Shown piece by piece: positions 1 to 49,690 of a stretch of DNA of 64,000 nt; the stretch's first letter is position 1; each line of letters opens with the position of its first letter. This stretch comes from Candidatus Hydrogenedens sp. (GTDB taxonomy: Bacteria; Hydrogenedentota; Hydrogenedentia; Hydrogenedentales; Hydrogenedentaceae): contig JBMFRC010000003.1 of assembly GCA_049968235.1 (NCBI GenBank), forward strand, positions 64,001-128,000. Reading direction: 5' to 3'. Both the position numbers and the translations under genes were made by a program. The notes beneath the pieces are model-generated. The model saw only the letters and a list, made by a program, of their open reading frames with translations. It searched no databases and had not been told where the DNA came from.

Positions 1-204
1 TAATCCGATAATAAAGCCCAGAATATAGTTTGTGGCACGTGTCGGGTCATCCAGTTGATTTATTCCCTTTTCGATTGCGGGCTGGCTATAAAAAAAACCA
101 GCAATGAGTATCATGAGCATCCCATAGCCAATAATCAGTCCTGTTAATGTACGGAACCAGTAGCGTCGGGTGATAATCCATCCACGTATTATCTCTGCTT
201 TCAT
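1..204 (-). CDS. ABC-2 family transporter permease, N-terminal part (gene runs off window start)
   Basis: ATG at 204 on minus strand; translation MKAEIIRGWIITRRYWFRTLTGLIIGYGMLMILIAGFFYSQP... is hydrophobic; immediately downstream of ABC ATPase in same orientation; weak SD. Confidence 0.4.
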   Translation of the reverse strand, partial: MKAEIIRGWIITRRYWFRTLTGLIIGYGMLMILIAGFFYSQPAIEKGINQLDDPTRATNYILGFIIGL

Positions 205-229
205 AATGAGTAGAAAACCAAGCATGATA

Positions 230-1309: not shown

Positions 1310-2007
1310 TATGAAACTCCACCTCCTTCAAATAATGTCCTTTCTAATTCGTCCATACATTTATCGGGGTCATTTATCTCCTGCAACTTGTCTAAATACT
1401 CAAGGTAATTGCTTTCCATATTACGAATGAAATGTAGAATTGTTACAAAACCCAGGTCATTTGTAACATGGTAAAGAATGCTTATGATAATAGAGAATAT
1501 CAAAAATTCGATGTTCTGGCGTAGTTGATTTTGAAAAATATGTTCATGCACCAATGTAAAAGTGAGGGATACGATAAGAATCGCAATAGCGGGACTTCCC
1601 ATTATCCCTATCAGAATAGGTTGGATTGTAGCCCGATAAATAATCTCCTCTGTAAGTGCAACTGTAAAAGTCTTTCCTAATAACACCGGCGAAAGAAATG
1701 AGAAACGGAACACCTGTAAAAAGGATAGAAATTGATTTTTTACAATAGAATTAAAGCCTACTGTAATAAGAAATCCGATGGTATATAAAATATGTCCCAA
1801 TACTAATCCCACTATCCAATTAGGCACGAAAAATAAATTTCTGGGGAGTATTTGCTGGATAAATAGATAAAAAATCGCACAAATAAGTAAAAGGGATTGA
1901 ATAATTTTTACAATTGTAGTTAATTTCTGAATCTGGAAAAAATTGCGACATAATTCCAGCAGGAAATTCAAGGAGAAGAGGACTACAAGAATTATTTTGA
2001 TATTCAC
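1309..2007 (-). CDS. CPBP (CAAX/Abi) family intramembrane metalloprotease
   Basis: Multi-TM protein with EExxxR motif (TEEIIYR) and His motifs (LVHEHIF) typical of CPBP; 4-nt ATGA overlap with upstream GNAT. Confidence 0.7.
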   Translation of the reverse strand: MNIKIILVVLFSLNFLLELCRNFFQIQKLTTIVKIIQSLLLICAIFYLFIQQILPRNLFFVPNWIVGLVLGHILYTIGFLITVGFNSIVKNQFLSFLQVFRFSFLSPVLLGKTFTVALTEEIIYRATIQPILIGIMGSPAIAILIVSLTFTLVHEHIFQNQLRQNIEFLIFSIIISILYHVTNDLGFVTILHFIRNMESNYLEYLDKLQEINDPDKCMDELERTLFEGGGVS

Positions 2008-2624
2008 GAAGACTTCTCCAGATAATTCTTTATGCTTTCAGCCATTTTTTGTAGTGTAATTTCCCTTGTATGTTCGGTATTTTTTTCACGCCAGATTTGA
2101 AACTCCTGTTTTAATAATCCGTAAACATAAACATCATGCCAGACCCCGTTTCGTGTAATGTGTTCCTTTAGTGTGAGTTCTCGTTGGGCACCGAGAAATT
2201 CCAATAATTTCCATGATGGTTTATTGAAAGCATAAATAATAGCGGTAATGCGGTGTAAATTGAGTTCATCAAACGCATATTCCAATGCACGAAAAACATT
2301 AATTCCTGTCGTCAAATGATTCCGATGTTCCGGTGCTATATATACATCCAGATTGCAGGAACGATTCCGCCAGCTGATATTTTGTAGTGAAATCATTCCT
2401 AAAGGACCCTCCGGTGAATCAACGATGAAATATACACCAGCAGGGATAGGACTACCTGTATTTTTACTTAAAAACCCGATAATCTGTTCGCGAATAGTTC
2501 TTGGAGAACGGGCAGGGTCACCATACAGGAAGTATTGAAAATCTTCATCTTCCATCCAGCGGATAAGTGTGTCGAGGTCATCGCGGTCTGCTCTGCGGAT
2601 AAAAGATTTTGTAATAATACTCAC
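2004..2624 (-). CDS. GNAT family N-acetyltransferase (RimJ/RimL-like)
   Basis: RimL-like pattern ...ITAIIYAFNKPSWKLLEFLGAQRELTLKEHITRNGVWHDVYVYGLL; co-oriented in operon. Confidence 0.7.
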   Translation of the reverse strand: MSIITKSFIRRADRDDLDTLIRWMEDEDFQYFLYGDPARSPRTIREQIIGFLSKNTGSPIPAGVYFIVDSPEGPLGMISLQNISWRNRSCNLDVYIAPEHRNHLTTGINVFRALEYAFDELNLHRITAIIYAFNKPSWKLLEFLGAQRELTLKEHITRNGVWHDVYVYGLLKQEFQIWREKNTEHTREITLQKMAESIKNYLEKSS

Positions 2625-2637
2625 GAAAAACCCCTTC

Positions 2638-3183
2638 TTATTTCAATTCGACCGACAAAGTATTACTATTTTGAAATTTTGCCCATGTCTCAAGATTATG
2701 CCATTTCCCACAGGTGAATAGCACCTCTCGCATACATCCTTCACATTGATATGAATGATTTAATAGAAAGTTTCGCAGTCTTTCTTCCACATCCAGACAG
2801 GTTGTCATTAATTTTCTTAAATGGAGTTGTTGAAATGCCCGCACCTCAATAAATTCTAATGCTTCACCAATCAGAGCGGATTCATTATCGTAGGTCTCAT
2901 TTTCAAACAGGAGCATCATCTCCCCAAAAAGTGCCTCCGCATTTATCCCTTTTAGGATAACAAAGCCGGAAATATCTCCAATTTTATTTTCAACAGCATA
3001 AAAGGACTGAGCAGTATCTTTATGTTGAAGAAGTTCCTCCAACTCACTTAGATTGGGCATGAGCGGTTCTCGTTTCGTATCCAGCAGGGTGGCAAAGATG
3101 GGTTTGTGCAGGTAAAAACGGAGCAGTTCTTTTGCATCAAAACGGTCCGCATTGCGAATAGTCGCATAAGTCTTTTTTATCAT
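2638..3183 (-). CDS. GNAT-like N-acetyltransferase (divergent second copy)
   Basis: C-terminal half ...LRKLMTTCLDVEERLRNFLLNHSYQCEGCMREVLFTCGKWHNLETWA resembles RimL-type GNAT C-terminus; 13 nt from next GNAT. Confidence 0.5.
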   Translation of the reverse strand: MIKKTYATIRNADRFDAKELLRFYLHKPIFATLLDTKREPLMPNLSELEELLQHKDTAQSFYAVENKIGDISGFVILKGINAEALFGEMMLLFENETYDNESALIGEALEFIEVRAFQQLHLRKLMTTCLDVEERLRNFLLNHSYQCEGCMREVLFTCGKWHNLETWAKFQNSNTLSVELK

Positions 3184-3280: not shown

Positions 3281-3400
3281 TTAAAAGCCAATTTCGTTTT
3301 TCTTTTCGTAGCGGAAATCCTGCCAGGCTCGCCACACCGCATTAAAAAAGTTTGTAAAGGCATCAGCTTTCCGTAATGTCAACTTTTGAATGTGCTTCAT
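3281..3400 (-). CDS. small peptide P1 (39 aa) MKHIQKLTLRKADAFTNFFNAVWRAWQDFRYEKKNEIGF; member of tandem paralogous peptide family
   Basis: Not in ORF track (<60 aa). Found by manual translation of minus strand; N-terminus MKHIQKLT matches the conserved motif of the three neighbouring small ORFs. Confidence 0.4.
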   Translation of the reverse strand: MKHIQKLTLRKADAFTNFFNAVWRAWQDFRYEKKNEIGF

Positions 3401-3451: not shown

Positions 3452-3652
3452 TTAACTGCTTGAAGAGGTTGTTGTAGTAGTTGTTGTCCCGGTGCTCGGC
3501 AATGGAGACTCCGGGTCCTTATTCTTGAAAACAGGAATAAAAATTTTTATTATATCTTCAATAAATTTTATTATATTAACTGTGGTATAGGGGAAATCAC
3601 TCGCGGATAGGGGTTGAGTTATCTTCTGAATATGTATCTTATTACGCACCAT
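3452..3652 (-). CDS. small peptide P2 (66 aa from ATG 3652; track ORF uses GTG at 3661) ending ...STGTTTTTTTSSSS
   Basis: Contains KIHIQKIT near the N-terminus, which aligns with MKHIQKLT/MKHIRRLT/MKRIQCIT; hydrophobic middle; 11-residue Thr/Ser C-tail. Confidence 0.45.
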   Translation of the reverse strand: MVRNKIHIQKITQPLSASDFPYTTVNIIKFIEDIIKIFIPVFKNKDPESPLPSTGTTTTTTTSSSS

Positions 3653-3884
3653 ACTTCCCACTTCCGTCCAATGTTGAGGTATCTTCTGTATTTCTCGTTT
3701 CGAGTAAAGTTCGAACTGCTGTCAATATCTGAAGAAAAATTGTCAAAATAACATCAATCGTAACCGCTTGAACAGGTCTACTGTATGTCTGTCTTTTAAT
3801 ATGTTTCATAAAAATACCTTTAAACTATAAATCTATTATACTAAATATAAAGTATTTTACAAACTACAAAGATTCTGTATCTTA

Positions 3885-4070
3885 CTAACTGGTCGTAGTA
3901 TTTGTTGTTTCCTGAGGTTTTTTTACTTCCGCTAAAGGCAAGAAGAAATTTGTAAGCACAGAAAGCAAAAAACAAAGAAATGCCTGATAATCACTTGTGA
4001 TATTTGTGCAAAAGTTAGAACTTTGCTGTGCCCTTGATGGTTTAACAGTGATACATTGGATTCTCTTCAT
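3885..4070 (-). CDS. small peptide P3 (61 aa) MKRIQCITVKPSRAQ...FLCFLLSVLTNFFLPLAEVKKPQETTNTTTS
   Basis: SD GGAG 9 nt upstream; N-terminus is homologous to P4 (MKRIQCITVKPSRAQ vs MKHIRRLTATLHKAQ); Thr-rich C-tail. Confidence 0.45.
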   Translation of the reverse strand: MKRIQCITVKPSRAQQSSNFCTNITSDYQAFLCFLLSVLTNFFLPLAEVKKPQETTNTTTS

Positions 4071-4094: not shown

Positions 4095-4250
4095 CTACGA
4101 AGAAGAGGAGGTGCCTCCTTCTTTAGCGACAAAAGCCTGAGCGACGACAGATAAAATATTCGCAATCAGGGTTAATATCTGTCCAATACTCAAAGTTGTC
4201 TCTATTTGTGCTTTGTGTAATGTGGCGGTTAATCTTCTTATATGTTTCAT
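4095..4250 (-). CDS. small peptide P4 (51 aa) MKHIRRLTATLHKAQIETTLSIGQILTLIANILSVVAQAFVAKEGGTSSSS
   Basis: Manual translation; lies out of frame inside track ORF 4123..4338; SD GGAG upstream; amphipathic/hydrophobic middle; SSSS tail; paralogous N-terminus. Confidence 0.45.
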   Translation of the reverse strand: MKHIRRLTATLHKAQIETTLSIGQILTLIANILSVVAQAFVAKEGGTSSSS

Positions 4251-4475: not shown

Positions 4476-7001
4476 TTATTTCTTTAATCGAGCACTGCTC
4501 ATCATAAATAACAATATACCGATAAATATAAAATCAAACAGATATTTCAATAAGGAATTGTTGTTTAAGGATTTGTTTATACAGCCACAAACATTTGTTG
4601 CTCCAGTTTCTTCCTTACTGATATTTCCATCACCATTCGTATCTATTTGATTAAATATTTCATGGGTTAACCATGGATACACAATACTTAACTCATCCCA
4701 ACTTAACATATTATCGCCGTTCGCATCAAACAATGAAAACCGTTTCTTGAGTATATTCTTTAATTCCTTTAATGTCATTGGACATGTACCCGCAGAAACC
4801 GTAATATTAACTACTGATTCCGGCTCTACCTGAGTTCCTGCGGGTGGATATTGAGTTATGACATTGCCTGTAGCTATGTCATTACTACACTCCTGGGTAA
4901 CATCCCCAACCTTCAGGTTTGCAGATTTTATAACATTTTTTGCAGAATCCTGGTTCATACCAACTACATCCGGAACCACATTTAATCCGACATACTGAGA
5001 CACTAATTGTGGATAAGATTTATTTTCTTTTATATACCATACTTTTTCAAAATCCCAACCATTAAAAGTGGCTTGCTGTTTCATTTTTGCCGTTGTTTTA
5101 CCCGTGCCACCTGCAGAATTTTTTTGTCCGGAAGTCTCTGTGTCCCAATATGAATTACTTACCGTACCGGAATGGTTATATCCCAAAAGCCCCCCAATAT
5201 ACGAAGCCCCGGAAGAATTGGACACAGAACCTGCTGAATAACAATAATTTATTGTGCCTCTATAATTTCCACCTACCAGTCCACCACTGTATAGAACTCC
5301 TGAAACAGACCCTATGGCATAACAGTTGCTAATTTCATTATTATTCTCACCTACCAGACCACCAACATTTATATGTCCCTGAGTTGTAACCTCCGCACAA
5401 CAACTACTTGCCTTACCCGAATTTGAACCTATTGCCCCACCAATAGAACTATATCCTGTTACAGACCCCTCTGCATGACAACCACTTACTGTACCATAAT
5501 TCTGACCTGCTAATATGCCTATAGAAGAAATATTCGTATCCCCGGAAACAGAACCTTTTGCATGGCAATTACTCACAGTACCATAATTTCGTCCTATTAA
5601 TATACCGACGGAAGTGGAAGTAACAGAAAGAGTATTTGTATGTCCTGATACGGAACCTTCTACATAACAATTACTTACTGTGCCATAATTTTGTCCTGCC
5701 AATATACCCACGAAAGAAGAACCCGCGACAATAGCATTTTCTATACTTAAATTTTTAACCACACCTTTCATATCAATATAGCCAAAGAAACCAACATAGT
5801 TTTCAGAAGGACGATTTATCGTTAGACCAACTATTTTATGCCCTTTACCATCAAAATTGCCTTTGAATGGATGCTCTTTATCTGCCCCTATAGGAGGCAA
5901 ATCTATTCCTGCAACATTAATATCATTAATTAATTCATAATCGCCATTCAAAGGATAAATGTCCCCTATCTTTTGCAATTCCCCGACATTATCTACAAGG
6001 ATAGTCCCCGGATTAATATTTCGCAGGAAAGGATATTGATATGGATAGGAATACACATCACTGCTGACATAGATTCTCCAAACTGTTTCAAAATCCCAGC
6101 CCACATAAGTGTTCTTTAATTTCATTTCTTCCGCTGTTTTCCCTGTTCCCCCATCAGAAGCACTCTGTCCGGATGCTATTATGTCCCAGTAACAATTACT
6201 AACATAGCCACTTTCTTTCTTTGCAATAAGCCCGCCTGTTATATGTTCTTCCGTTGAAGTCGCTGTTGACCGAACAGTTCCTCGACAATAACAATTAGTT
6301 ACACCATTTTCATTGCTGTTATTGTAGCCAATAAGTCCCGCAACATAATTCTTCCCTGTAATAGAACTTGAACTGTAACTATTATCAACAGAGCCTATAT
6401 TTTCACCTATCAATCCGCCAACACGATTTATTCCTGTTATAGATGCAAGATTATAACACTGACTTACTGTTCCCAAATTTTGACCCGTAATACCGCCAAC
6501 ATAATCCGTTCCTTTTACCGTTCCGCTGTTAACACAACTCTGTAATACTACACCGAAATTCCGACCGACAATCCCACCAACATTTGAATTACCTTTAATT
6601 GATATATTTTCTAAACGGAGATTATGGACTTTCCCACCAGCATCAACATATCCAAATAATCCAATATCATCCTCATCTCCCCGCGATATAACAAGACCTT
6701 TTATCTTATATCCTTTGCCATTAAAATCACCTGTAAAAGGACTATTAAATGTTCCTATGGGTTTAAACCCCGCTTTATCATTCCAGGTCGATGTGCTACT
6801 TGCGTCAATATCTTCTGTCAATTCATATTCCGCACTTAACGGGTAATTTGCATCATTACCTATTTTCTGTAATTCCTCAATACTGTTTATCTGGATTACA
6901 GTTGCACCATAACTGTTTCCGAAATAGAAACTCATGCAAAAAATAAAAAATAAACAAAAGGGGAAATATATGGTCTTTTTTGAAAAACTTCGATTATTCA
7001 T
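4476..7001 (-). CDS. large secreted surface protein: duplicated N-terminal module + GLUG-type (VGG[IL]xGxNxGx[IV]xNCY) repeats + PASTA domain + two dockerin/EF-hand-like Ca-binding loops + C-terminal TM anchor
   Basis: Signal peptide MNNRSFSKKTIYFPFCLFFIFCMSFYFGNSYG with strong SD (AAGGAG) before ATG at 7001; repeats GGIVGRNFGVV..C, VGGLIGENIGSV; PASTA-like VVPDVVGMNQDSAKNVIKSANLKVGDVTQE; DANGDNMLSWDEL and DTNGDGNISKEE; C-terminal FDFIFIGILLFMMSSARLKK. Confidence 0.7.
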   Translation of the reverse strand: MNNRSFSKKTIYFPFCLFFIFCMSFYFGNSYGATVIQINSIEELQKIGNDANYPLSAEYELTEDIDASSTSTWNDKAGFKPIGTFNSPFTGDFNGKGYKIKGLVISRGDEDDIGLFGYVDAGGKVHNLRLENISIKGNSNVGGIVGRNFGVVLQSCVNSGTVKGTDYVGGITGQNLGTVSQCYNLASITGINRVGGLIGENIGSVDNSYSSSSITGKNYVAGLIGYNNSNENGVTNCYCRGTVRSTATSTEEHITGGLIAKKESGYVSNCYWDIIASGQSASDGGTGKTAEEMKLKNTYVGWDFETVWRIYVSSDVYSYPYQYPFLRNINPGTILVDNVGELQKIGDIYPLNGDYELINDINVAGIDLPPIGADKEHPFKGNFDGKGHKIVGLTINRPSENYVGFFGYIDMKGVVKNLSIENAIVAGSSFVGILAGQNYGTVSNCYVEGSVSGHTNTLSVTSTSVGILIGRNYGTVSNCHAKGSVSGDTNISSIGILAGQNYGTVSGCHAEGSVTGYSSIGGAIGSNSGKASSCCAEVTTQGHINVGGLVGENNNEISNCYAIGSVSGVLYSGGLVGGNYRGTINYCYSAGSVSNSSGASYIGGLLGYNHSGTVSNSYWDTETSGQKNSAGGTGKTTAKMKQQATFNGWDFEKVWYIKENKSYPQLVSQYVGLNVVPDVVGMNQDSAKNVIKSANLKVGDVTQECSNDIATGNVITQYPPAGTQVEPESVVNITVSAGTCPMTLKELKNILKKRFSLFDANGDNMLSWDELSIVYPWLTHEIFNQIDTNGDGNISKEETGATNVCGCINKSLNNNSLLKYLFDFIFIGILLFMMSSARLKK

Positions 7002-7534
7002 CAAACAGCTCCTTGTTATTAATAAAATTACATGCAATAAACGCAATCAAATACATAGCTCTATTTCGCAATATATCTCTTTTAATTTATAAAATATCTT
7101 GTTGCCTCGGACTATCTTTGTATTTTAATAAGAAAGAGGCAATCCGCTTAAAATTTAAAGAAATACTATCATAGTATTATTGAATAATATAATTCTATTT
7201 TCAACATTTTAGAGTGATAATGAAATGTTAAAACAAACAAAATATTAACGGCATCTTTTGTGTCTCCGCTGACTGAATATAAAAAGATGAGCAAATAAGA
7301 AAAAGTTGTATTGTTTATAAGATAAAATCATTACGCATGTTATAAACGGTATTGTTATTTTATAATATAATTCCCGCTGTTCGTTGATAATACTATGATT
7401 ATTTCATACATGCTATTACCATACGGTCATTGGGAAAGATAGTTCAGGTTGCAATTTGATAATCACATAGAATTGAAATTACACTTATTACAGATTTTTT
7501 GTGTTCTGGAAAGTTAAATATAAGGAATGGGAAA

Positions 7535-40341: not shown

Positions 40342-41460
40342 TTATTTTGAGGGACTTATGCCCAGAGTTCTTAAAATTTCAAAGGCTGTCTGTTTCCCTG
40401 CTCCGGGGGAACCTAATTTCTCCCTTAACTGTTTAAAATCATATATCATACTTCCCCTCAAAGTCGAATTTTGAACAAGTGAAACTAATCGGTTGTATAT
40501 ATGTAATGGAGTGGCATCGTTTTGTATAAGTTCCGGAACAACTTCTCGTCCCATTAATATATTAACAATACCAATATGTGAAATGTTTACCAGCAATCGT
40601 GCAATGTAATATGTTAATGGATGGGTGCGGTAAATAAGAACAAAAGGCATTCCAGAAAGTGCGGATTCCAATGTTGCCGTTCCCGAAGATACGATACCCG
40701 CATGAGATATTTGCAATACCTGCTCTATTCCTCCTTCATAAATTTCAATAGCAAAATCGCCAGATATGTCTCTAATAAGTTCTACACAACTCCTGTTGAA
40801 CGCAGGCACGACAAATTTTGTTTGGGGATATACAGATAGAAACTGTTTTGCTGTCTCAAGCATAACAGGAAAATTTCTTTTTATTTCTTGAGGTCTACTA
40901 CCCGGCAATAAACCGATTGTATAAGGGGGGGTATAATCCAGTTCTTTTCGCATCGTAGGTATTTTGTCTAATAGAGGATGCCCTACATAAACACATTCAA
41001 CACCTTCTTGTTCATATATCGGCACTTCAAATGGGAAAATAACCAGCACTTTTCGAACCCATCGGGCAATTTTTTTCACCCGATTTTTTTTCCATGCCCA
41101 TACCTGTGGGCTTATGTAATAAATAATAGGGATATTTAACTCTTTTATCATTGGGGCGATATGCAAATTAAAGCCAGGATAGTCCACCAGAACGACCCCG
41201 GTCGGATTATGCTCTTTAATCCAATTCAGTGTATTTTTCATTAATTGTCTTATATCCCCTAAATGTTTTACAACCTCCACAAAGCCCATAATCGCATTGG
41301 TACATAAATCATACAACAACACGAAACCTTCCTTCTCCATATTTTGTCCCCCTAAACCCACATGTTTGACCTCCGGTGCCAATTGCCGCAATTCGCGTAT
41401 GACATTGGCACAATGCAAATCGGCTGACGGGTCACCTACCACCCAGAAAATTGTGCTCAC
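40342..41460 (-). CDS. lpxB: lipid-A-disaccharide synthase
   Basis: N-terminus IFWVVGDPSADLHCANVIRELRQ typical of LpxB; 4-nt overlap with upstream gene. Confidence 0.85.
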   Translation of the reverse strand: MSTIFWVVGDPSADLHCANVIRELRQLAPEVKHVGLGGQNMEKEGFVLLYDLCTNAIMGFVEVVKHLGDIRQLMKNTLNWIKEHNPTGVVLVDYPGFNLHIAPMIKELNIPIIYYISPQVWAWKKNRVKKIARWVRKVLVIFPFEVPIYEQEGVECVYVGHPLLDKIPTMRKELDYTPPYTIGLLPGSRPQEIKRNFPVMLETAKQFLSVYPQTKFVVPAFNRSCVELIRDISGDFAIEIYEGGIEQVLQISHAGIVSSGTATLESALSGMPFVLIYRTHPLTYYIARLLVNISHIGIVNILMGREVVPELIQNDATPLHIYNRLVSLVQNSTLRGSMIYDFKQLREKLGSPGAGKQTAFEILRTLGISPSK

Positions 41461-42422
41461 TTGTAACTCCGTATTTGTTCAACAATTTGACAAGAAAGTT
41501 CCAATGCTCTTAAACCCTCTTCCCCGGATACTTCGGGAGGTGTTCCATCGCGAACCGCAGAGACAAATGCCTTTATCTCTGCCTGTAAAGGCTCTTCATT
41601 GGATACTTGAATTGGTGTTATCTCTATAAACTTCATCGGATTACTATTCGGTGGAATGTCTCCTCCCTTTTTACGATACACAAGTAAACTTTGCGAACTG
41701 TAATCGGTTGAAACATATTCACTATCCGAGAATATGCGTATTTTACGCATCCGGTCCATCGAGACACGACTTGCTGTTAAATTGGCAACACAACCCGACT
41801 GAAAACGAAGACGCACATTTGCAATGTCTTCAGAATCAGAAAAAACCGATACGCCCACAGCATCCATAGATATTACAGAACTACGGGTAAGAGTTAGAAT
41901 AATATCAATATCATGTATCATTAAATCGTGAACCACACTCACATCGGTACCCCTACCCGGGAAAGGGCTTAAACGATGGCACTCAATAAAACGCGAATTG
42001 TTTATTAAATTGAACAAAGCACGAACTGCACCATTAAATCTTTCCACATGCCCTACCTGCAAGATACGATTATTCTTTTGGGCAACAGATACCATCTTTT
42101 TCCCCTCTTCTACCGTTGCCGAAATGGGCTTTTCTACTAATACATGAACCCCTGCTTCCAGTAATGGTATCGCCACATTCGCATGAGTAGATGTCGGAGT
42201 TACTACTGAAACAAGGTCTAACGGTTCCTTCAAGATTTCATCTATGGATGAAAAAACCGAAACCTGAAAGTCCGTCTTTGCTTTCAACCTCCGCTCTTCA
42301 GAAATATCTACAACCCCAACCAATTCTACATCCGGAAGAGTCGAATAAATACGGACATGGTGAAATCCTAAATATCCAAATCCAATAACTCCCACTCGCA
42401 ATTTACGGTTCTTTTTACTCAT
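41457..42422 (-). CDS. Gfo/Idh/MocA family oxidoreductase located between lpxA and lpxB (GnnA-like position)
   Basis: Rossmann LRVGVIGFGYLGFHH; VLVEKPI motif; gene context within the lipid A cluster. Confidence 0.7.
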   Translation of the reverse strand: MSKKNRKLRVGVIGFGYLGFHHVRIYSTLPDVELVGVVDISEERRLKAKTDFQVSVFSSIDEILKEPLDLVSVVTPTSTHANVAIPLLEAGVHVLVEKPISATVEEGKKMVSVAQKNNRILQVGHVERFNGAVRALFNLINNSRFIECHRLSPFPGRGTDVSVVHDLMIHDIDIILTLTRSSVISMDAVGVSVFSDSEDIANVRLRFQSGCVANLTASRVSMDRMRKIRIFSDSEYVSTDYSSQSLLVYRKKGGDIPPNSNPMKFIEITPIQVSNEEPLQAEIKAFVSAVRDGTPPEVSGEEGLRALELSCQIVEQIRSYK

Positions 42423-42494
42423 TAATTTCTTTCCAGATTAAACTTAAAACTTTATCCTTTAACCCCAAGATATTCTATCACACCAAAACAGAAA

Positions 42495-43337
42495 TTACAC
42501 CAACTCATCACTGATAGGGTTAACCTGTGCTTCCTGAGGAGATAAAGGACCTTTAGATAAGCCTCGCTTTGAATTTTTAATAAAATCAAGGATAACCCTC
42601 CGTTCCGGGCTATCTTCGACTTGTTCCAGAATGGTTTTAACTGCCTGTTGTGTGTTTAGATTGGAACGGTAAAGAAGACGATACATCTGTCGTATCCGAC
42701 CGATAGATTCCGTACTAAAACCCGCTCGTTGTAAACCGATTACATTGGGTCCAAAACATTGGGCAGGGTAGCCTTCTGTAATCATATACGGTAAAACATC
42801 TTTTCCTACACGGGACATTGCTCCTACAAAAGAGTATTGTCCCACCGTACAGAACTGATGCACACCACTTAATCCACCAATGGACGCATAGTTCTCTACT
42901 GTAACATGCCCCGCAAGAGCAGAATTATTTGCCATAATTACACGATTCCCCACATGGCAATCATGGGCAACATGGGTGCAAGCCATAAAAAGACAATCAT
43001 TACCTATAACTGTTGCTTTTTCGTCTGTATCATCTGCATAGACCGTGCTGGAACTAATGGTTACAAATTCACGAAAAATGTTGTTATCTCCAATCAGTGT
43101 TTTCCCATACCGTCCCTTCACATGTTTTAGGTCTTGCGGGAGAATCCCTATTTGTGCACCTGCAAAGCAATGATTGTTTTTCCCCATTACTGTGCCAGAA
43201 CCAATGACACAATGGGGACCGATTACCGAGTTATCACCAATAACAACATGGGCTTCAATAATTGCATAAGGATGGATTTGAATATCCTTACCCAATTCAA
43301 CAGACGGATGTACAATTGCAGTCGGATGAATACTCAC
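42495..43337 (-). CDS. lpxA: acyl-ACP--UDP-N-acetylglucosamine O-acyltransferase
   Basis: N-terminus MSIHPTAIVHPSVELGKDIQIHPYAIIEAHVVIGDNSVIGPHCVIG hexapeptide repeats characteristic of LpxA. Confidence 0.85.
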   Translation of the reverse strand: MSIHPTAIVHPSVELGKDIQIHPYAIIEAHVVIGDNSVIGPHCVIGSGTVMGKNNHCFAGAQIGILPQDLKHVKGRYGKTLIGDNNIFREFVTISSSTVYADDTDEKATVIGNDCLFMACTHVAHDCHVGNRVIMANNSALAGHVTVENYASIGGLSGVHQFCTVGQYSFVGAMSRVGKDVLPYMITEGYPAQCFGPNVIGLQRAGFSTESIGRIRQMYRLLYRSNLNTQQAVKTILEQVEDSPERRVILDFIKNSKRGLSKGPLSPQEAQVNPISDELV

Positions 43338-45192: not shown

Positions 45193-46464
45193 ATGGATAT
45201 GATACGAGGTATTTTTTCGGATTATCGTTGGCGGAACTGGTTTCGGATATTTTTTTCTTCGCGTGAGAATTCGAAGATGAGGTCGAGGTCGGTTTTGCGT
45301 CGTTCTCTTGTTTTCAACGCGCCGAATGGTTATTTACAGGGTTTTGTTCCGCTTCCGGATAATGTTCCCTTTCAGATGTTAGAGGTGTATCGTTATCTTC
45401 GGGATAATATTCCGGATTTGTCTGATGCGGTGTGGACATGGAAACGGTTATGCAATACGGGTTTTAGGCTTTCATGGTCGGAGAGAGTATCGGAATCGTT
45501 AAAACGGGATGGACAGGTAATTATTGAACAGTTGAATCGTCGCATGAATCATGGTGAAGGTGGTTTGACGCATCTGTTGGATATTTTGTATACATCCTTG
45601 TTTACATATGGTGCTTCTGCTATAGAAATTGTATTTTCGCCGCGAGGGAGTCAGATTTATGATGTGGTTCCGGTGGATGTATGGACGGTTCGTTTTCGTT
45701 GGGAGGATGGGGATTGGCAGGCGTATCAGGTGTATGCGGAAGAGGTGATACGGCTCCCTCGCGAACGGTTTGTGTATATTGCTCTGGACCGTGATGGAAC
45801 CAATCCGTATGGTCGTTCTTTATTTCGTTCTCTACCTTTTGTGGTACGGATACAACAGCGGTTAATGGAGGATATGTCTCGTGCTATGCATAATGCGGGT
45901 TGGGCTCGTATGCATGTGCAGTATAAGCCTGAACCGCGTGGGACGGATGAAACGGAGGAGGAGTATCAGAGTCGTTTGGATGCAAATTTAGAGCAGGTGC
46001 GGAATCAGATGAGTAATTTGGGGGTAGACCAGAATGTTGTTACTTTTGATAATATTGGCATATCGGTTGTTCAGGGGGCACAGCGTTTTTCGGCGTATTA
46101 TGAAACACAGCGTGCTATTGAGGAACAAATCATTACGGGTGCGCATATGATGCCTATTTTGTTGGGTCGGAATTATGGGACGACGGAGACTTACGGCACG
46201 GTGCAATATGAAATCATGAATCGACAGGTGGATACCATTAATCAATATTTAGCTCGTGTTCTGGAACGGATATATCGTCTGGAATTGTCGATGCATGGGA
46301 TAGAGGCGGAATTTACTGTGCAACCCCAATCGAATAGCACTGCGGATACGGTTAAAAAATCTTTAATAGAAACGAGACGAATTAATACGCTTCTTCAATT
46401 AGTACAATCGGGAATCATTTCTAAGGAAGATGTGCGTAAGGAAGTAGAAGAGATTTTACATTAG
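45193..46464 (+). CDS. putative phage portal-like protein (first gene of phage-head-like module)
   Basis: 423 aa, Arg-rich N-terminus; position at head of a tightly packed SD-rich operon with a capsid-like gene, M15 peptidase and holin-like gene; no definitive motif. Confidence 0.35.
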   Translation: MDMIRGIFSDYRWRNWFRIFFSSRENSKMRSRSVLRRSLVFNAPNGYLQGFVPLPDNVPFQMLEVYRYLRDNIPDLSDAVWTWKRLCNTGFRLSWSERVSESLKRDGQVIIEQLNRRMNHGEGGLTHLLDILYTSLFTYGASAIEIVFSPRGSQIYDVVPVDVWTVRFRWEDGDWQAYQVYAEEVIRLPRERFVYIALDRDGTNPYGRSLFRSLPFVVRIQQRLMEDMSRAMHNAGWARMHVQYKPEPRGTDETEEEYQSRLDANLEQVRNQMSNLGVDQNVVTFDNIGISVVQGAQRFSAYYETQRAIEEQIITGAHMMPILLGRNYGTTETYGTVQYEIMNRQVDTINQYLARVLERIYRLELSMHGIEAEFTVQPQSNSTADTVKKSLIETRRINTLLQLVQSGIISKEDVRKEVEEILH

Positions 46465-46508
46465 GATAAGGTTTTAAGTTTGATTTAACGAACAGAGGAG
46501 GCTTTTTT

Positions 46509-47225
46509 ATGGGTATGCTTGAAAGGCTGTGTTTTTGTGAGCGTTTGGGTGAAGTGGTAAACAACCATTCCGGATTTGCTTCTGAGGGATGGGATAGAGA
46601 AGCGGAGTTATCTGAGATTAATCGTTATACTTTGCGGTCGTTAACAGAGGATGAATATGTTGTTTTTACACTGGACCTTTGCCATAATCAGATTGACCGT
46701 CATTTCAGTTGTTTTCCGGAGAATGAACTGGAAGTGATAGATAAGAAGGTGCCGGGCAGACCTTTAATGGAACGGCACGATTTAAGGGGATCTCTACCGC
46801 GAGGGACTTTTTTCTATTCCCGTCTTCATCGGCAGGGAGATGTTCTATCGGTTCGACCTAAGGTTTATGTATTGAGATTGGAGGAGAATCGGAATTTCAT
46901 TGCCAATATTGAGGGAGGTATTTACAGGGAAACTTCCATTGGTTTTTCTTTTTTATTTCCGGAATGTTCCATTTGTGGTCGTGATATACGGCGCTGTGTG
47001 CATGTTCCTGGTGAGAAATATGAGGGTTCTCTGTGTTTTTATCGTATGCGGGGTGTTCAGGATGTATTGGAGGGGTCTGTGGTAGCGTGTGGTTCACAGG
47101 GCACTTCGTTTGTATCAGATGTGCGAGCACACATATTAGAGCAATTTGGTGAAAAGGGAGGGATTCTGCTTCAACGGAGTTATTTTGGTGGGATGGATAA
47201 AAATAAGGCATGGTGTAAGGAATAG
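46509..47225 (+). CDS. hypothetical Cys-rich protein (position of head maturation protease/scaffold)
   Basis: SD GAGGAGG; CFCERLGE and CSICGRDIRRCVH clusters; no clear catalytic motif. Confidence 0.3.
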   Translation: MGMLERLCFCERLGEVVNNHSGFASEGWDREAELSEINRYTLRSLTEDEYVVFTLDLCHNQIDRHFSCFPENELEVIDKKVPGRPLMERHDLRGSLPRGTFFYSRLHRQGDVLSVRPKVYVLRLEENRNFIANIEGGIYRETSIGFSFLFPECSICGRDIRRCVHVPGEKYEGSLCFYRMRGVQDVLEGSVVACGSQGTSFVSDVRAHILEQFGEKGGILLQRSYFGGMDKNKAWCKE

Positions 47226-47273
47226 GTTTTCAATGAATACAAAAGGCGATAGAACAAGAGAGGAGGTGATTTT

Positions 47274-47471
47274 ATGCTCAGACCATCCACGGTAGCCAGG
47301 CGGAGAAGTAAGTATGATGCGATAAATAATTTATGTGAAGATGTAAGCGAATTGCGGGAGCGTATTTTGCGGTTGGAGCAGTCGTTATTTCGTGGGCTAT
47401 GGCTTTTGATAGCCAATCTGCTTGGGGTTGTGTTTTCTTTAATACAACAGGGGATATTTTTAAACCATTGA
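47274..47471 (+). CDS. small protein with coiled-coil N-terminus and hydrophobic C-terminus
   Basis: SD GAGGAGG 6 nt upstream; ELRERILRLEQSLF then LWLLIANLLGVVFSLI. Confidence 0.3.
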   Translation: MLRPSTVARRRSKYDAINNLCEDVSELRERILRLEQSLFRGLWLLIANLLGVVFSLIQQGIFLNH

Positions 47472-47488
47472 AGAAAGGAGGTGGTTTT

Positions 47489-48214
47489 ATGTTTTGCAGG
47501 ATGATAGAGCATCAAGGAGAAATCCCTGTGGATGTTCCGCTTCATTCCGAAGGTCGTTTTGTGGTTCATGCGCATAAGGACCGGCAGGGTCATCATCTTG
47601 ACTTGCGGATAGAACAGAGGGGCTATCTTCTTGGCTGGCGAATTGATGATACCGAATTACGAAGTGAACTTTGGGGAACGGAGAAACTTCCTCATGACTT
47701 TTCGTGGCTGGATGAGGAAAGACCGGAGGGAACAGGAGTTACGGGTGATTATCGCTGGTTCAGTCAGGGTGATGGAAATGGTTATCTGAATTTGCGGATG
47801 AGTAATAATGAGCAACGCACATATCGTGTGGAGCGATGGGGCGGTTTTTCCATTCGTTTTCAGCGGGCATTGTGGCAAAGTATGCGGAAGTGGCAATTAT
47901 CGCCTTTACAGGTTCTTTCTGTTGTAGAAGATGGGATTAATGCCCGTGAATACGCAATTCGGCGGATATGTGGTTTAGGCAGGTTTCTTGAAGGGGAAAA
48001 TTTTGATGCATCCCAATGGGAAAAGGTTTTATTGCGGTGTTCGTTAAATGAAATCTATGCCCATTTAAGGAAATGGGAAAACCGTCTGGAAAGTCAAAAC
48101 CCACCCCAAAGAATTTCACAGCCGGAAAAGGTTGATGAAGTTTGTGTAGAAAAAGGGAATTTACGAACAAAGCCTGACCTGTTAAATTTAGTGCGTGGTC
48201 AGGGGAAAGTATAA
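47489..48214 (+). CDS. LigD 3'-phosphoesterase (PE) domain-like protein with C-terminal extension
   Basis: SD GGAGGTGG; RFVVHAHKDRQGHHLDLRIEQRGYLLGWRI and KLPHDFSWLDEE match the LigD-PE motifs HxH..H.D.R.E / DHP.DY as recalled. Confidence 0.4.
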   Translation: MFCRMIEHQGEIPVDVPLHSEGRFVVHAHKDRQGHHLDLRIEQRGYLLGWRIDDTELRSELWGTEKLPHDFSWLDEERPEGTGVTGDYRWFSQGDGNGYLNLRMSNNEQRTYRVERWGGFSIRFQRALWQSMRKWQLSPLQVLSVVEDGINAREYAIRRICGLGRFLEGENFDASQWEKVLLRCSLNEIYAHLRKWENRLESQNPPQRISQPEKVDEVCVEKGNLRTKPDLLNLVRGQGKV

Positions 48215-48242
48215 ATAACAGGAAGAAGAAAGGAGGCAAATT

Positions 48243-48623
48243 ATGGCATTTGGAGATATTGGTGGGACATATACCGAGTTGATTATTACATGTAGCACAC
48301 CAGAAACGGGACCTGTAAGTATCCGTCGTGGTGATGCACTGAAACTTATCGGAGGGTATGTGGTAACGAATACTTTTACCGGAGAGGATGTCATTTTCGG
48401 GCAGGCAATGAATGATTGTAATGTGAATGATACCGCTATCCCTGTAAAGGTGCGAGGTATATGCATTTTTGAGTATGAGGGAGTTCCGCCCACAGTAAAT
48501 GGAGTGCAAGGGATTGCGGGTTCGACTACTCCGGGTAAAGTGAAAGCACCTGCGTCCGGGAATGGTTCTGGCAGGGTAGTGAAAACAGAATCTTCTATAA
48601 ATCGGGTCCATGTATTGCTTTAA
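48243..48623 (+). CDS. small Gly/Val-rich protein (DUF2190 / head-decoration-like by size and composition)
   Basis: SD AAAGGAGG; 126 aa; GGYVVTNTF..GQA...VKVRGICIFEYEG..NGVQGIAG. Confidence 0.3.
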   Translation: MAFGDIGGTYTELIITCSTPETGPVSIRRGDALKLIGGYVVTNTFTGEDVIFGQAMNDCNVNDTAIPVKVRGICIFEYEGVPPTVNGVQGIAGSTTPGKVKAPASGNGSGRVVKTESSINRVHVLL

Positions 48624-48640
48624 CAGGAAAGGAGGTTATT

Positions 48641-49690
48641 ATGATGTTATCCATGCAGACAAAATTGACAGAACAGATGCAGTTTCTGTCACAGCCCAAA
48701 GAGAAATTATTATCCATACGCGGGAAGGAATTGTATGAGACATTAAATTCTTTAGGTCTAACCCATACTCAATTTTTCCGTGCTATTGGGACAGATATTG
48801 AGGAATATTGTGCTCGTGAGTTTGGTGTTGATTTATACCAGATTACGGTGGAGCGTTTTTTCCAGACAGACCCTAATGCGAAATGGCTTTTTCCGGACCT
48901 GGTTCGAGAGTCGGTTATTTCAGGGATGACGGGGAAGCCTGTATATTCACAATTGATAATTCGGGATGAGCGTATAGAGAGTGCGGTCTATGATGTGCCA
49001 TATGTTAAGGAGTCGGAGGAAGAGGAAGAACTACGGAATGTCGGCGAAGGAGCGGTTATTCCGGAATCGGAAATAAGGTACGGGAATCGAATTATCCAGT
49101 TACAAAAATTGGGGCGTGGCATTTTAGCGTCGTATGAGGTTATCCGCCGTATGTCTGTGGATATGTTGCGGGTTCATCTTCGTCGGATGGGTGAATGTCT
49201 TGGCAGAAATCTGGATAAACGGCTTGCGTATGTGCTGGCTTATGGGGATATGTCTGGGGAAACAAGTCCGGATGTGCTGAATACGGAGACTGCTAATATA
49301 TGGAAATATACAGACCTCGTCCGTGCTTTCTTGCATTTAACTACGAAGAATTTTTTTCATCCGACGCATCTGCTTGCGAACTCCGATACGATGGAAAAGA
49401 TAATGTCGTTGCCGGAGATTACCGATTCTGCATTGTTTGATTTTGCGAAATCGGGCAATTTGCCGACACCTTTGGGAGTAAAATTGGTGCCCATGTCTGA
49501 CCATCCGGAAAATTGTTTTACTTTACTGGATTCTCGCTATGCAGTCCAGAAGTTAACGGAACAAGATGTGCTTGTAGAAAGTGACCGCCTGATACATCAA
49601 CAATGGGACCGTAGTTATCTTACGGTGGTAACAGATTTCGCCATTATTTATCGAAAGGCGCGTGTGGTTATGCGTTGTGACTGGAGTTAA
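48641..49690 (+). CDS. putative major capsid-like protein
   Basis: SD AAGGAGG; 349 aa; follows the decoration-like gene in canonical head-gene order; no confirmable motif. Confidence 0.3.
   Translation: MMLSMQTKLTEQMQFLSQPKEKLLSIRGKELYETLNSLGLTHTQFFRAIGTDIEEYCAREFGVDLYQITVERFFQTDPNAKWLFPDLVRESVISGMTGKPVYSQLIIRDERIESAVYDVPYVKESEEEEELRNVGEGAVIPESEIRYGNRIIQLQKLGRGILASYEVIRRMSVDMLRVHLRRMGECLGRNLDKRLAYVLAYGDMSGETSPDVLNTETANIWKYTDLVRAFLHLTTKNFFHPTHLLANSDTMEKIMSLPEITDSALFDFAKSGNLPTPLGVKLVPMSDHPENCFTLLDSRYAVQKLTEQDVLVESDRLIHQQWDRSYLTVVTDFAIIYRKARVVMRCDWS

Follow-up and report, generated by a model that had tools for sequence, protein, structure and literature searches.

In a 64,000-nucleotide stretch of a Candidatus Hydrogenedens sp. 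genome (assembly GCA_049968235.1, contig JBMFRC010000003.1, forward-strand positions 64,001 to 128,000; hereafter the window), three small peptides end in Ser/Thr homopolymer tails. We found that these three, peptides A, B, and D, belong to a set of five paralogous peptides, A to E, which looks like an undescribed peptide-maturation system, similar to those of peptides that ribosomes make and that are modified after translation (RiPPs), conserved across the phylum Hydrogenedentota. The tails of A, B, and D are probably disordered polar ends, free of Lys and Arg, that serve this RiPP-type peptide set in solubility and polarity (rough probability 0.55). The initial annotation of the window, which spoke of three peptides, was right about the number of Ser/Thr tails; the peptides number five, and C and E carry no homopolymer.

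The mixed-codon tails TSSSS, TTNTTTS, and T7S4 were all found where they had first been described, on the minus strand (Table 1). The interval 3452-3520 is the 3′ end of the open reading frame (ORF) of peptide D, which ends ...FKNKDPESPLPSTG-TTTTTTT-SSSS-stop, with a Gly directly before the Thr run (...STG-T7S4). The T7S4 codons of D read ACA ACA ACT ACT ACA ACA ACC TCT TCA AGC AGT, and across the tails Thr is encoded by three of its four codons and Ser by codons of both its boxes (TCN and AGY). The chance expectation was calculated for all 231 ATG-started ORFs of at least 40 amino acids in the six frames of the whole window. Among these, A, B, and D alone had C-terminal ends with five of five or at least six of seven Ser/Thr residues, where the S+T frequency of the window (0.115) would predict ~0.005 such ends. 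Tandem Repeats Finder (score at least 30) did not call the tails as repeats, and a simple slippage-array origin was rejected on this basis.

All five peptides share an N-terminal M-K-H-I-[KR]-x-[ILV]-[ST] leader, to which peptide D adds a few N-terminal residues compared with the other four. Across 143 leader-bearing peptides, the consensus extended to M-K-H-I-[KR]-x-[ILV]-[TS]-x-x-P-x-x-A. The peptides follow a four-part plan, in which a leader of ~14 residues and a helix of ~20-25 residues are followed by a near-invariant Lys, then Glu, Asp, or Asn, and a variable tail, 4-27 residues long, in which Ser, Thr, Gly, Pro, Glu, Asp, Asn, and Gln abound. The helices of A, B, and C are hydrophobic (19-residue Kyte-Doolittle maxima 1.87-1.93), and those of D and E are amphipathic (hydrophobic moment 0.64-0.69; D, 0.69). 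At the helix/tail junctions (AKE, KKPQE, TR/TK, NKDPE, and KKNE), a basic residue precedes an acidic or amide residue, and the anchor Lys was kept in 33 of 33 A and 19 of 19 D sequences. The cores of A, C, D, and E contain no Cys, and B has two or three. The tail of C is polar and acidic/Thr-rich. In the AlphaFold (AF2) model of peptide D, residues 21-43 form a helix and the chain from residue 44 to the end is low-confidence coil, with a predicted local distance difference test (pLDDT) score of ~47-53 in the tail. This agrees best with the second option of the initial annotation, that a membrane-active peptide carries the tail as a flexible, hydrophilic spacer.

The peptide genes are closely packed, with Shine-Dalgarno-like sequences before most of them, including GGGAG 8 nucleotides upstream of A and an AAGGAG ribosome-binding site before B; orthologues of A and of B were each found in 31 loci. 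The genes for C and D share 11 nucleotides (3642-3652, minus strand), the last four codons of C running into the start of D (ATG 3652), an arrangement that suggests translational coupling. The gene callers of the source assemblies had called A to D and missed E, for which the NCBI locus-tag series has no tag. E is the most conserved of the five and near-invariant across the phylum. When the five peptides were scanned against Pfam and NCBIfam, nothing meaningful emerged, with no NCBIfam match at E ≤ 1, and peptide A as a query against PDB sequences returned chance matches alone. The spacer between B and C contains a 19-bp AT-rich direct repeat (2.6 copies; 3822-3871). This repeat overlaps promoter-like hexamers of the minus strand (3862..3835) and may function in regulation or as an internal promoter. 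A pattern search for terminators and promoters found no convincing regulatory signal, and the sole 'terminator' in the peptide block fell inside the coding sequence of A. The combination of leader, hydrophobic helix, short tail, and tandem paralogues also recalls Flp pilins; this reading was ruled out, as the peptides have no G/xxxxEY site and the operon no pilus machinery.

Table 1. Peptide genes, their Ser/Thr tails, and operon genes in the window (aa, amino acids; positions counted from the first nucleotide of the window).
Feature	Position	Strand	Description
Peptide A, 51 aa	4095..4250	-	leader MKHIRRLTATLHKA, helix LSIGQILTLIANILSVVAQAFVA, anchor Lys-Glu, tail GGTSSSS
TSSSS closing peptide A	4112..4098	-	
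Peptide B, 61 aa	3885..4070	-	leader MKRIQCITVKPSRA, core SDYQAFLCFLLSVLTNFFLPLAEVKK, tail PQETTNTTTS
TTNTTTS closing peptide B	3908..3888	-	
Peptide C, 55 aa	3642..3809	-	leader MKHIKRQT, helix VTIDVILTIFLQILTAVRTLL, Arg/Lys anchor
Peptide D, 66 aa from ATG 3652	3452..3652	-	leader-like (K)IHIQKIT, amphipathic helix, NK-DPESPLPSTG linker, T7S4
T7S4 codons of peptide D	3487..3455	-	
Stop codon of peptide D	3454..3452	-	
Peptide E, 39 aa from ATG 3400	3281..3400	-	MKHIQKLTLRKA-DAFTNFFNAVWRAWQDFRYEKKNEIGF; Trp/Phe-rich amphipathic helix, no Ser/Thr tail
GNAT-fold protein 2 (GNAT2), 181 aa, divergent	2638..3183	-	Pfam Acetyltransf_4 E 1.4e-6
GNAT-fold protein 1 (GNAT1), 206 aa, RimJ/RimL/SpeG-like	2004..2624	-	Pfam Acetyltransf_3 E 4e-16; PDB SpeG E 1e-11
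CPBP/Rce1-like glutamic intramembrane protease, 232 aa	1309..2007	-	Pfam Rce1-like E 7e-11; EExxxR
ATP-binding cassette (ABC) ATPase, DrrA/ABC-2 type, 359 aa	230..1309	-	Pfam ABC_tran E 4.5e-31; TIGR01188 drrA E 2e-71
ABC permease partner, multi-pass, 279 aa, first 75 codons in window	1..225	-	tblastn 100% over residues 1-75
MKHI-type leader sequence			MKHIKMLTSLPKA

The gene set recurs across the phylum. A pattern scan with one genome per GTDB species recovered 66 species-level loci that encode the family of a 613-amino-acid operon protein, P0014. Nearly all of these are titled as Hydrogenedentota metagenome-assembled genomes; the other titles were several automated Nitrospirales/Nitrospiraceae or 'uncultured bacterium' names, one FCB group, and one Bathyarchaeia. 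Gene counts in the loci were 45 for GNAT2, 52 for GNAT1, 58 for the CPBP protease, 65 for the ABC ATPase, and 70 for the permease. With hidden Markov models of the peptide groups, E was found in 55 loci and A to D in about 30. A regular expression for the leader detected one to six leader-bearing small ORFs in 47 of the 71 loci scanned; most lay on the same strand as the 613-amino-acid gene, 4-5 kb upstream of it, and a few stray matches fell elsewhere. Peptide E formed 23 representative clusters in 1.84 billion proteins. Full-text literature searches returned no description of the combination of leader, GNAT, and RiPP features set out below or of such a system in Hydrogenedentota.

Comparison of orthologues separated what is conserved in the tails from what is not. 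Within the genus Hydrogenedens, taken as the loci whose 613-amino-acid protein is at least 50% identical, Ser/Thr-rich tails were kept in all 8-10 orthologues. Peptide A ended in GGTSSSS, GDTTSAS, EGTSSS, EGNS, TASTTTT, TGSTTIS, EGSTTITSTK, or TGTTTTTA, and peptide B in TTNTTTS, TTNTTSS, TTDSIRS, TTTTETTTS, TTTPETTTE, and similar sequences. The D tails always ran in the order Gly (one to three), Thr block, Ser block (T7S4, T8S3N, TTTTSTSSTSSS, TTTPPSSSSS, T7S5TS, T3STS14, and T8S6). Those of the window and of two relatives, L003 and L019, were all T7S4 and differed at five synonymous and no non-synonymous positions, which indicates selection on the protein. Together with the Ser/Thr-rich genus orthologues, this bore out the proposal of the initial annotation that the tails are selected at the protein level. 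Tail length, as had also been noted there, differed among paralogues, and it varied among orthologues as well.

Beyond the genus, the composition changed. In the next clade out (L016 and L024, 37% identity), the D tail was TGGGGGGSGGGSSN, which is Gly-rich. In deeper clades, the A tails were KEAQEEED, KEAAAN, KEANQVEDY, and KESQEFPTIPTTGA, the B tails KTPTQTGA and KDPGDQPTE, and the D tails NKNPQNPVVIPDDDDDSTS, NKDPQNPATPPADTEGEAE, and NKDPQNPTPPSSSSTT; other distant examples ended ...DDDDDSTS or ...ADTEGEAE, and many unclassified members ended ...VKNPSGT, ...AKEETSS, or ...KKERTGT. The pooled S+T fraction was 0.52-0.60 in the genus (A, B, and D) and 0.23-0.29 elsewhere (A, C, and D), against a background of 0.115. 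The pooled K+R fraction of the tails was 0.00-0.04, and the remaining residues were mostly Asp/Glu, Gly/Pro, Asn/Gln, and Ala. Conservation in orthologues, on which the initial annotation had made its reading depend, was thus divided, with Ser/Thr-rich tails kept in the genus but no Ser/Thr homopolymers in more distant orthologues. What is conserved is a C-terminal extension behind the invariant Lys that is short, polar, disordered, and not basic; Ser/Thr itself is not conserved. The Ser/Thr homopolymers are best read as the Hydrogenedens-genus version of this generic disordered polar tail.

The partner of the peptides, P0014, is a homologue of the maturase CteB without the radical S-adenosylmethionine (radical-SAM) cluster, fused to a GNAT domain. 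CteB belongs to the SCIFF (six Cys in ~45 residues) system. The best PDB sequence match of P0014 was CteB 5wgg_A (phmmer, E 3e-12), over the RiPP recognition element (RRE; residues 6-94) and the SPASM region (264-409). NCBIfam SCIFF-maturase models matched the SPASM half alone (E ~1e-15), at 57 bits against cutoffs of 425-855. An AF2 model built from a 14-sequence alignment (mean pLDDT 77.8) matched CteB over 459 columns (Foldseek E 4e-13), and its C-terminal ~160 residues matched SpeG, RimL, RimJ, and IatT (9iy3) with target-normalised template-modelling scores of ~0.6-0.73. The CX3CX2C motif was absent in 14 of 14 family members, down to 24% identity, and Pfam Radical_SAM matched none of the family members. 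Invariant in the family were CX2CX5C, two more Cys of the SPASM region, and FCFEC(D) inside the RRE, a motif that is absent from CteB (an example of the family locus is L003:9798-11639). The full seven-Cys SPASM set is incomplete in most members; four to five SPASM-region Cys are kept, and the protein may bind a single metal or Fe-S centre.

The leaders point to the same relationship. The CteA leader in PDB entry 5wgg_B is MKHIKILNGSTLKDSLKKGGC, which starts MKHIKILN, and this leader binds the CteB RRE as a β-strand that extends the RRE β-sheet (PMC6231123). Given a SCIFF-type leader and a homologous RRE, the most economical interpretation is that the RRE of P0014 recognises the MKHI leader.

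The remaining operon genes (Table 1) are tightly arranged; 4 nucleotides are shared by the 3′ end of GNAT1 and the beginning of the CPBP gene, and 1 nucleotide by the CPBP and ABC ATPase genes. The gene for P0014 follows the permease gene outside the window, and the operons of relatives continue likewise. NCBI locus tags run consecutively from ACP5UA_03005 (P0014) to ACP5UA_03035 (peptide D), six apart. Orthologues of GNAT2 were 63-88% identical and had the same synteny. The CPBP protease gave weak matches to NCBIfam MrtJ/Mrt_core, and its EExxxR motif was invariant in all the orthologue rows shown (58 loci with matches).

Directly upstream of the peptides, at 4476-7046 on the minus strand, lies a gene for an 856-amino-acid protein that combines GLUG repeats with a PASTA domain and EF-hands. 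The same gene occupies this place in the closest relative examined (L003), and elsewhere in the genus the genes for a 73-amino-acid protein and a PHP-family CehA/McbA-like metallohydrolase (NF038032, E 1e-24) are found there. The latter two precede the peptides in 8-9 loci of the Hydrogenedens clade (L003:713-1832, L006:3617-4743, and equivalents) and, being confined to these loci, are not core parts of the system. Further upstream in the genus, on the opposite strand, are genes for a Cep192_D4-like Ig protein and a TM7S3/TM198-like membrane protein. Each of these four genes was found in 7-9 loci, and all are absent from the window. At 40342-43337 (minus strand), the window carries LpxB and LpxA-like genes with a Gfo/Idh/MocA-type oxidoreductase gene between them. 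The Lpx genes indicate a diderm envelope with a lipopolysaccharide-containing outer membrane, so that peptides exported by an ABC-2 pump would first reach the periplasm. Portal_Mu/Phage_portal and Phage_capsid_4 genes at 45193-49690 (plus strand) indicate a prophage or phage-derived element in the window.

For the reading that we prefer, we infer the following pathway. The leader would dock as a β-strand on the RRE of P0014, which, having no CX3CX2C motif and so presumably no radical-SAM chemistry, would present the peptide to GNAT-fold domains, namely its own C-terminal domain, GNAT1, and GNAT2. The most likely acyl acceptor would be the invariant Lys, as the most plausible amine, or alternatively an N-terminus freed by leader removal. 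Acylation of Lys is suggested by analogy with IatT and the selidamide acyltransferases, as GNATs of RiPP pathways acylate Lys (bioRxiv 10.1101/2024.12.31.630886; PMC13647313). The CPBP protease may trim the leader, the tail, or both; MroQ, a CPBP/Abi-type membrane peptidase, affects AgrD-derived peptide signalling (bioRxiv 10.1101/516906). The ABC-2 pump would export the peptide. The tail would keep the very hydrophobic helix soluble during cytoplasmic handling, and the basic leader and non-basic tail would set the polarity of the helix for membrane insertion or export. In this scheme, selection on the tail would act on composition, not on sequence.

Several observations weigh against this pathway. 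The peptides are more conserved than the enzymes, with E ~90% identical where the 613-amino-acid protein is 37% identical; this is atypical for RiPP cores, and the peptides could instead be structural small proteins. The canonical acetyl-CoA loop, Q/R-x-x-G-x-G/A, is missing from both GNAT1 and GNAT2. GNAT1 reads R-N-H-L-T-T-G at the position of S-G-K-G-Y-A in SpeG, and the motif-A region of GNAT2 is acidic and non-canonical. Acyl transfer by these two proteins is therefore not assured, and they may use another donor or act as non-catalytic partners. The anchor of peptide C is Arg, not Lys, in three genomes. Finally, the strict order of Gly, Thr block, and Ser block in the D tails of the genus is more order than a spacer needs.

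The Ser/Thr runs might instead be dedicated modification sites (mucin-like O-glycosylation, phosphorylation, or dehydration to dehydroalanine and dehydrobutyrine) served by enzymes encoded elsewhere in the genome. The initial annotation had made such modification its primary reading. Selection has maintained Ser/Thr across the genus, S+T is still ~2-fold enriched in distant clades, and the D tail stands behind a Pro-rich linker (NKDPExPPP) with an ordered Thr-then-Ser block, which resembles O-glycosylated linkers. The PHP-family metallohydrolase gene adjoins the peptides in 8 genus-clade loci, and some PHP enzymes are phosphoesterases; however, it is missing from the window although the tails are present. 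A search for enzymes that modify Ser/Thr covered the conserved operon and 40 ORFs of the window (0.2-49.7 kb). Except for the lipid A enzyme LpxB, no glycosyltransferase was found in the operon of the loci compared or in the scanned ORFs. Protein kinases and Lan-type dehydratases (LanB/LanM/LanKC/LanL) were likewise absent from the conserved operon and the scanned ORFs, in which this search brought up the sugar kinases FGGY and GHMP and lipopolysaccharide genes alone. The 66-locus gene set, too, contained no glycosyltransferase, protein kinase, or LanB/LanM/LanKC. Tails of other clades have few or no Ser/Thr residues (EAQEEED, EAAAN, the Gly-rich D tail, and DDDDD), and A, C, D, and E have no Cys partner for dehydrated residues. 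We consequently set modification aside as the primary reading and regard it as unlikely. O-acylation of tail Ser/Thr by the GNATs was also considered unlikely, as distant tails have no Ser/Thr and the RiPP GNAT precedents act on amines.

In another explanation, the tail is a disposable follower. As in CAAX processing, a GNAT would acylate the Lys at the helix end, the Rce1-like CPBP protease would clip off the tail, and the mature peptide would end at the acyl-Lys. An invariant Lys stands before a hypervariable tail in every family, an Rce1-family protease with intact EExxxR is always present, each operon encodes three GNAT-fold domains, and Lys acylation by RiPP GNATs has precedent. Rce1 itself removes the residues downstream of a lipidated residue. 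However, the tails are 4-27 residues long rather than a fixed three, and the aligned tail positions of the closest genomes differ synonymously alone, which argues that the tail is not simply discarded. The Arg anchor of C in three genomes and the non-canonical motif A of the GNATs also count against it, and the CPBP protease could equally be a leader peptidase or an immunity protein. We consider this explanation rather improbable.

A broader version of the same idea would make the system a phylum-wide, housekeeping-like pathway, in which an exapted SCIFF maturase has given up its radical-SAM centre and uses its RRE solely to hand MKHI peptides to GNATs, the invariant Lys at each helix end is modified, and the Rce1-like protease removes the tail. 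This is a speculative proposal with a small chance of being correct. If true, it would represent a bacterial counterpart of CAAX processing that is based on Lys and supplies the cell envelope with helical peptides acylated at their C-terminal ends.

The peptides could also be small single-pass or amphipathic membrane proteins of a housekeeping envelope complex, formed together or with the ABC-2 and CPBP proteins, with their tails facing the periplasm. Each paralogue is highly and specifically conserved across the phylum (E nearly invariantly), the hydropathy maxima of A, B, and C are transmembrane-like, and a basic N-terminus with a Lys/Arg-free tail fits an N-in/C-out topology in an organism that LpxA and LpxB mark as a diderm. 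Nevertheless, the SCIFF-type leader and the homologous RRE protein point to enzymatic processing, D and E are amphipathic and not transmembrane-like, and the number of leader-bearing peptides ranges from one to six among loci having any. This explanation is, in our judgement, very unlikely. That the ORFs are chance products or the tails low-complexity DNA made by slippage, with no function, could be argued from their short length, the lack of Pfam or NCBIfam matches, and the low complexity of the tails, but is already refuted by the conservation of order, frames, and sequences across dozens of species, in agreement with the synonymous-only divergence of the tails, the use of both Ser codon boxes, the absence of a Tandem Repeats Finder call, the ribosome-binding sites, and the excess of three observed tails over 0.005 expected.

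Comparison with known systems showed features shared with several classes. The closest of them, the SCIFF or ranthipeptide system (CteA/CteB; thermocellin), shares the MKHI[KR]x[ILV] leader start, a partner homologous to CteB in RRE, SPASM, and overall fold, and an ABC exporter in the cluster. It differs in that the system described here has no CX3CX2C motif, its cores are not Cys-rich, and its peptides do not match the SCIFF precursor model; with none of these three features, it is not a SCIFF system. It also has a GNAT domain fused to the maturase homologue in addition to two GNATs and a CPBP protease, and five distinct conserved helical cores with polar tails. Selidamides (KspN-type fatty acylation of Lys/Orn) and the IatT-type acetylation of lasso peptide Lys likewise place GNAT-fold enzymes beside ribosomal precursors with a conserved core Lys, and among GNATs the fused domain structurally matches IatT (9iy3). 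The leader type is different, however, no lanthionine or lasso machinery is present, and the GNAT here sits on a dead radical-SAM scaffold beside GNAT1 and GNAT2 with their non-canonical loops.

CAAX processing by Rce1, MroQ in staphylococcal AgrD/autoinducing peptide signalling, and Abi-type bacteriocin immunity are alike in having an EExxxR Rce1-family protease beside peptides made of a helix and a polar extension, but the peptides here have no Cys or prenylation signal and their tail length varies. Phenol-soluble modulins with Pmt and leaderless multi-peptide bacteriocins such as aureocin A70 also combine tandem genes for amphipathic or hydrophobic helical peptides of 40-60 amino acids with a DrrA-type ABC exporter. 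To our knowledge, peptides of these types have no leader, RRE partner, or polar Ser/Thr tail. They evolve quickly and occur in narrow Firmicutes lineages, whereas those described here are conserved throughout an entire phylum. Lanthipeptides do not fit, as the operon and the scanned window ORFs encode no dehydratase and four of the five cores have no Cys. Glycocins do not fit either, since no protein-glycosylating glycosyltransferase was found in the operon of the loci compared or the scanned ORFs. The leader ends in ...P-x-x-A and not in GG as in double-glycine class II bacteriocins, and no C39-peptidase exporter was found, the DrrA-type ATPase having a separate permease and no C39 domain.

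Taken alone, the tails are of modest interest, being the form that a polar, disordered peptide end takes in one lineage. They led, however, to what appears to be a RiPP-like system, in which SCIFF-type leaders precede helical, non-Cys cores and which is conserved across an uncultured phylum. Genome mining for RiPPs that relies on radical-SAM motifs or on known models of precursors would overlook this peptide family. If the proposed logic holds, the system would add five strongly conserved small peptides, one of which (E) is missing from current annotation, and would provide a clear example of a former radical-SAM maturase that now binds leaders as a scaffold for other chemistry.

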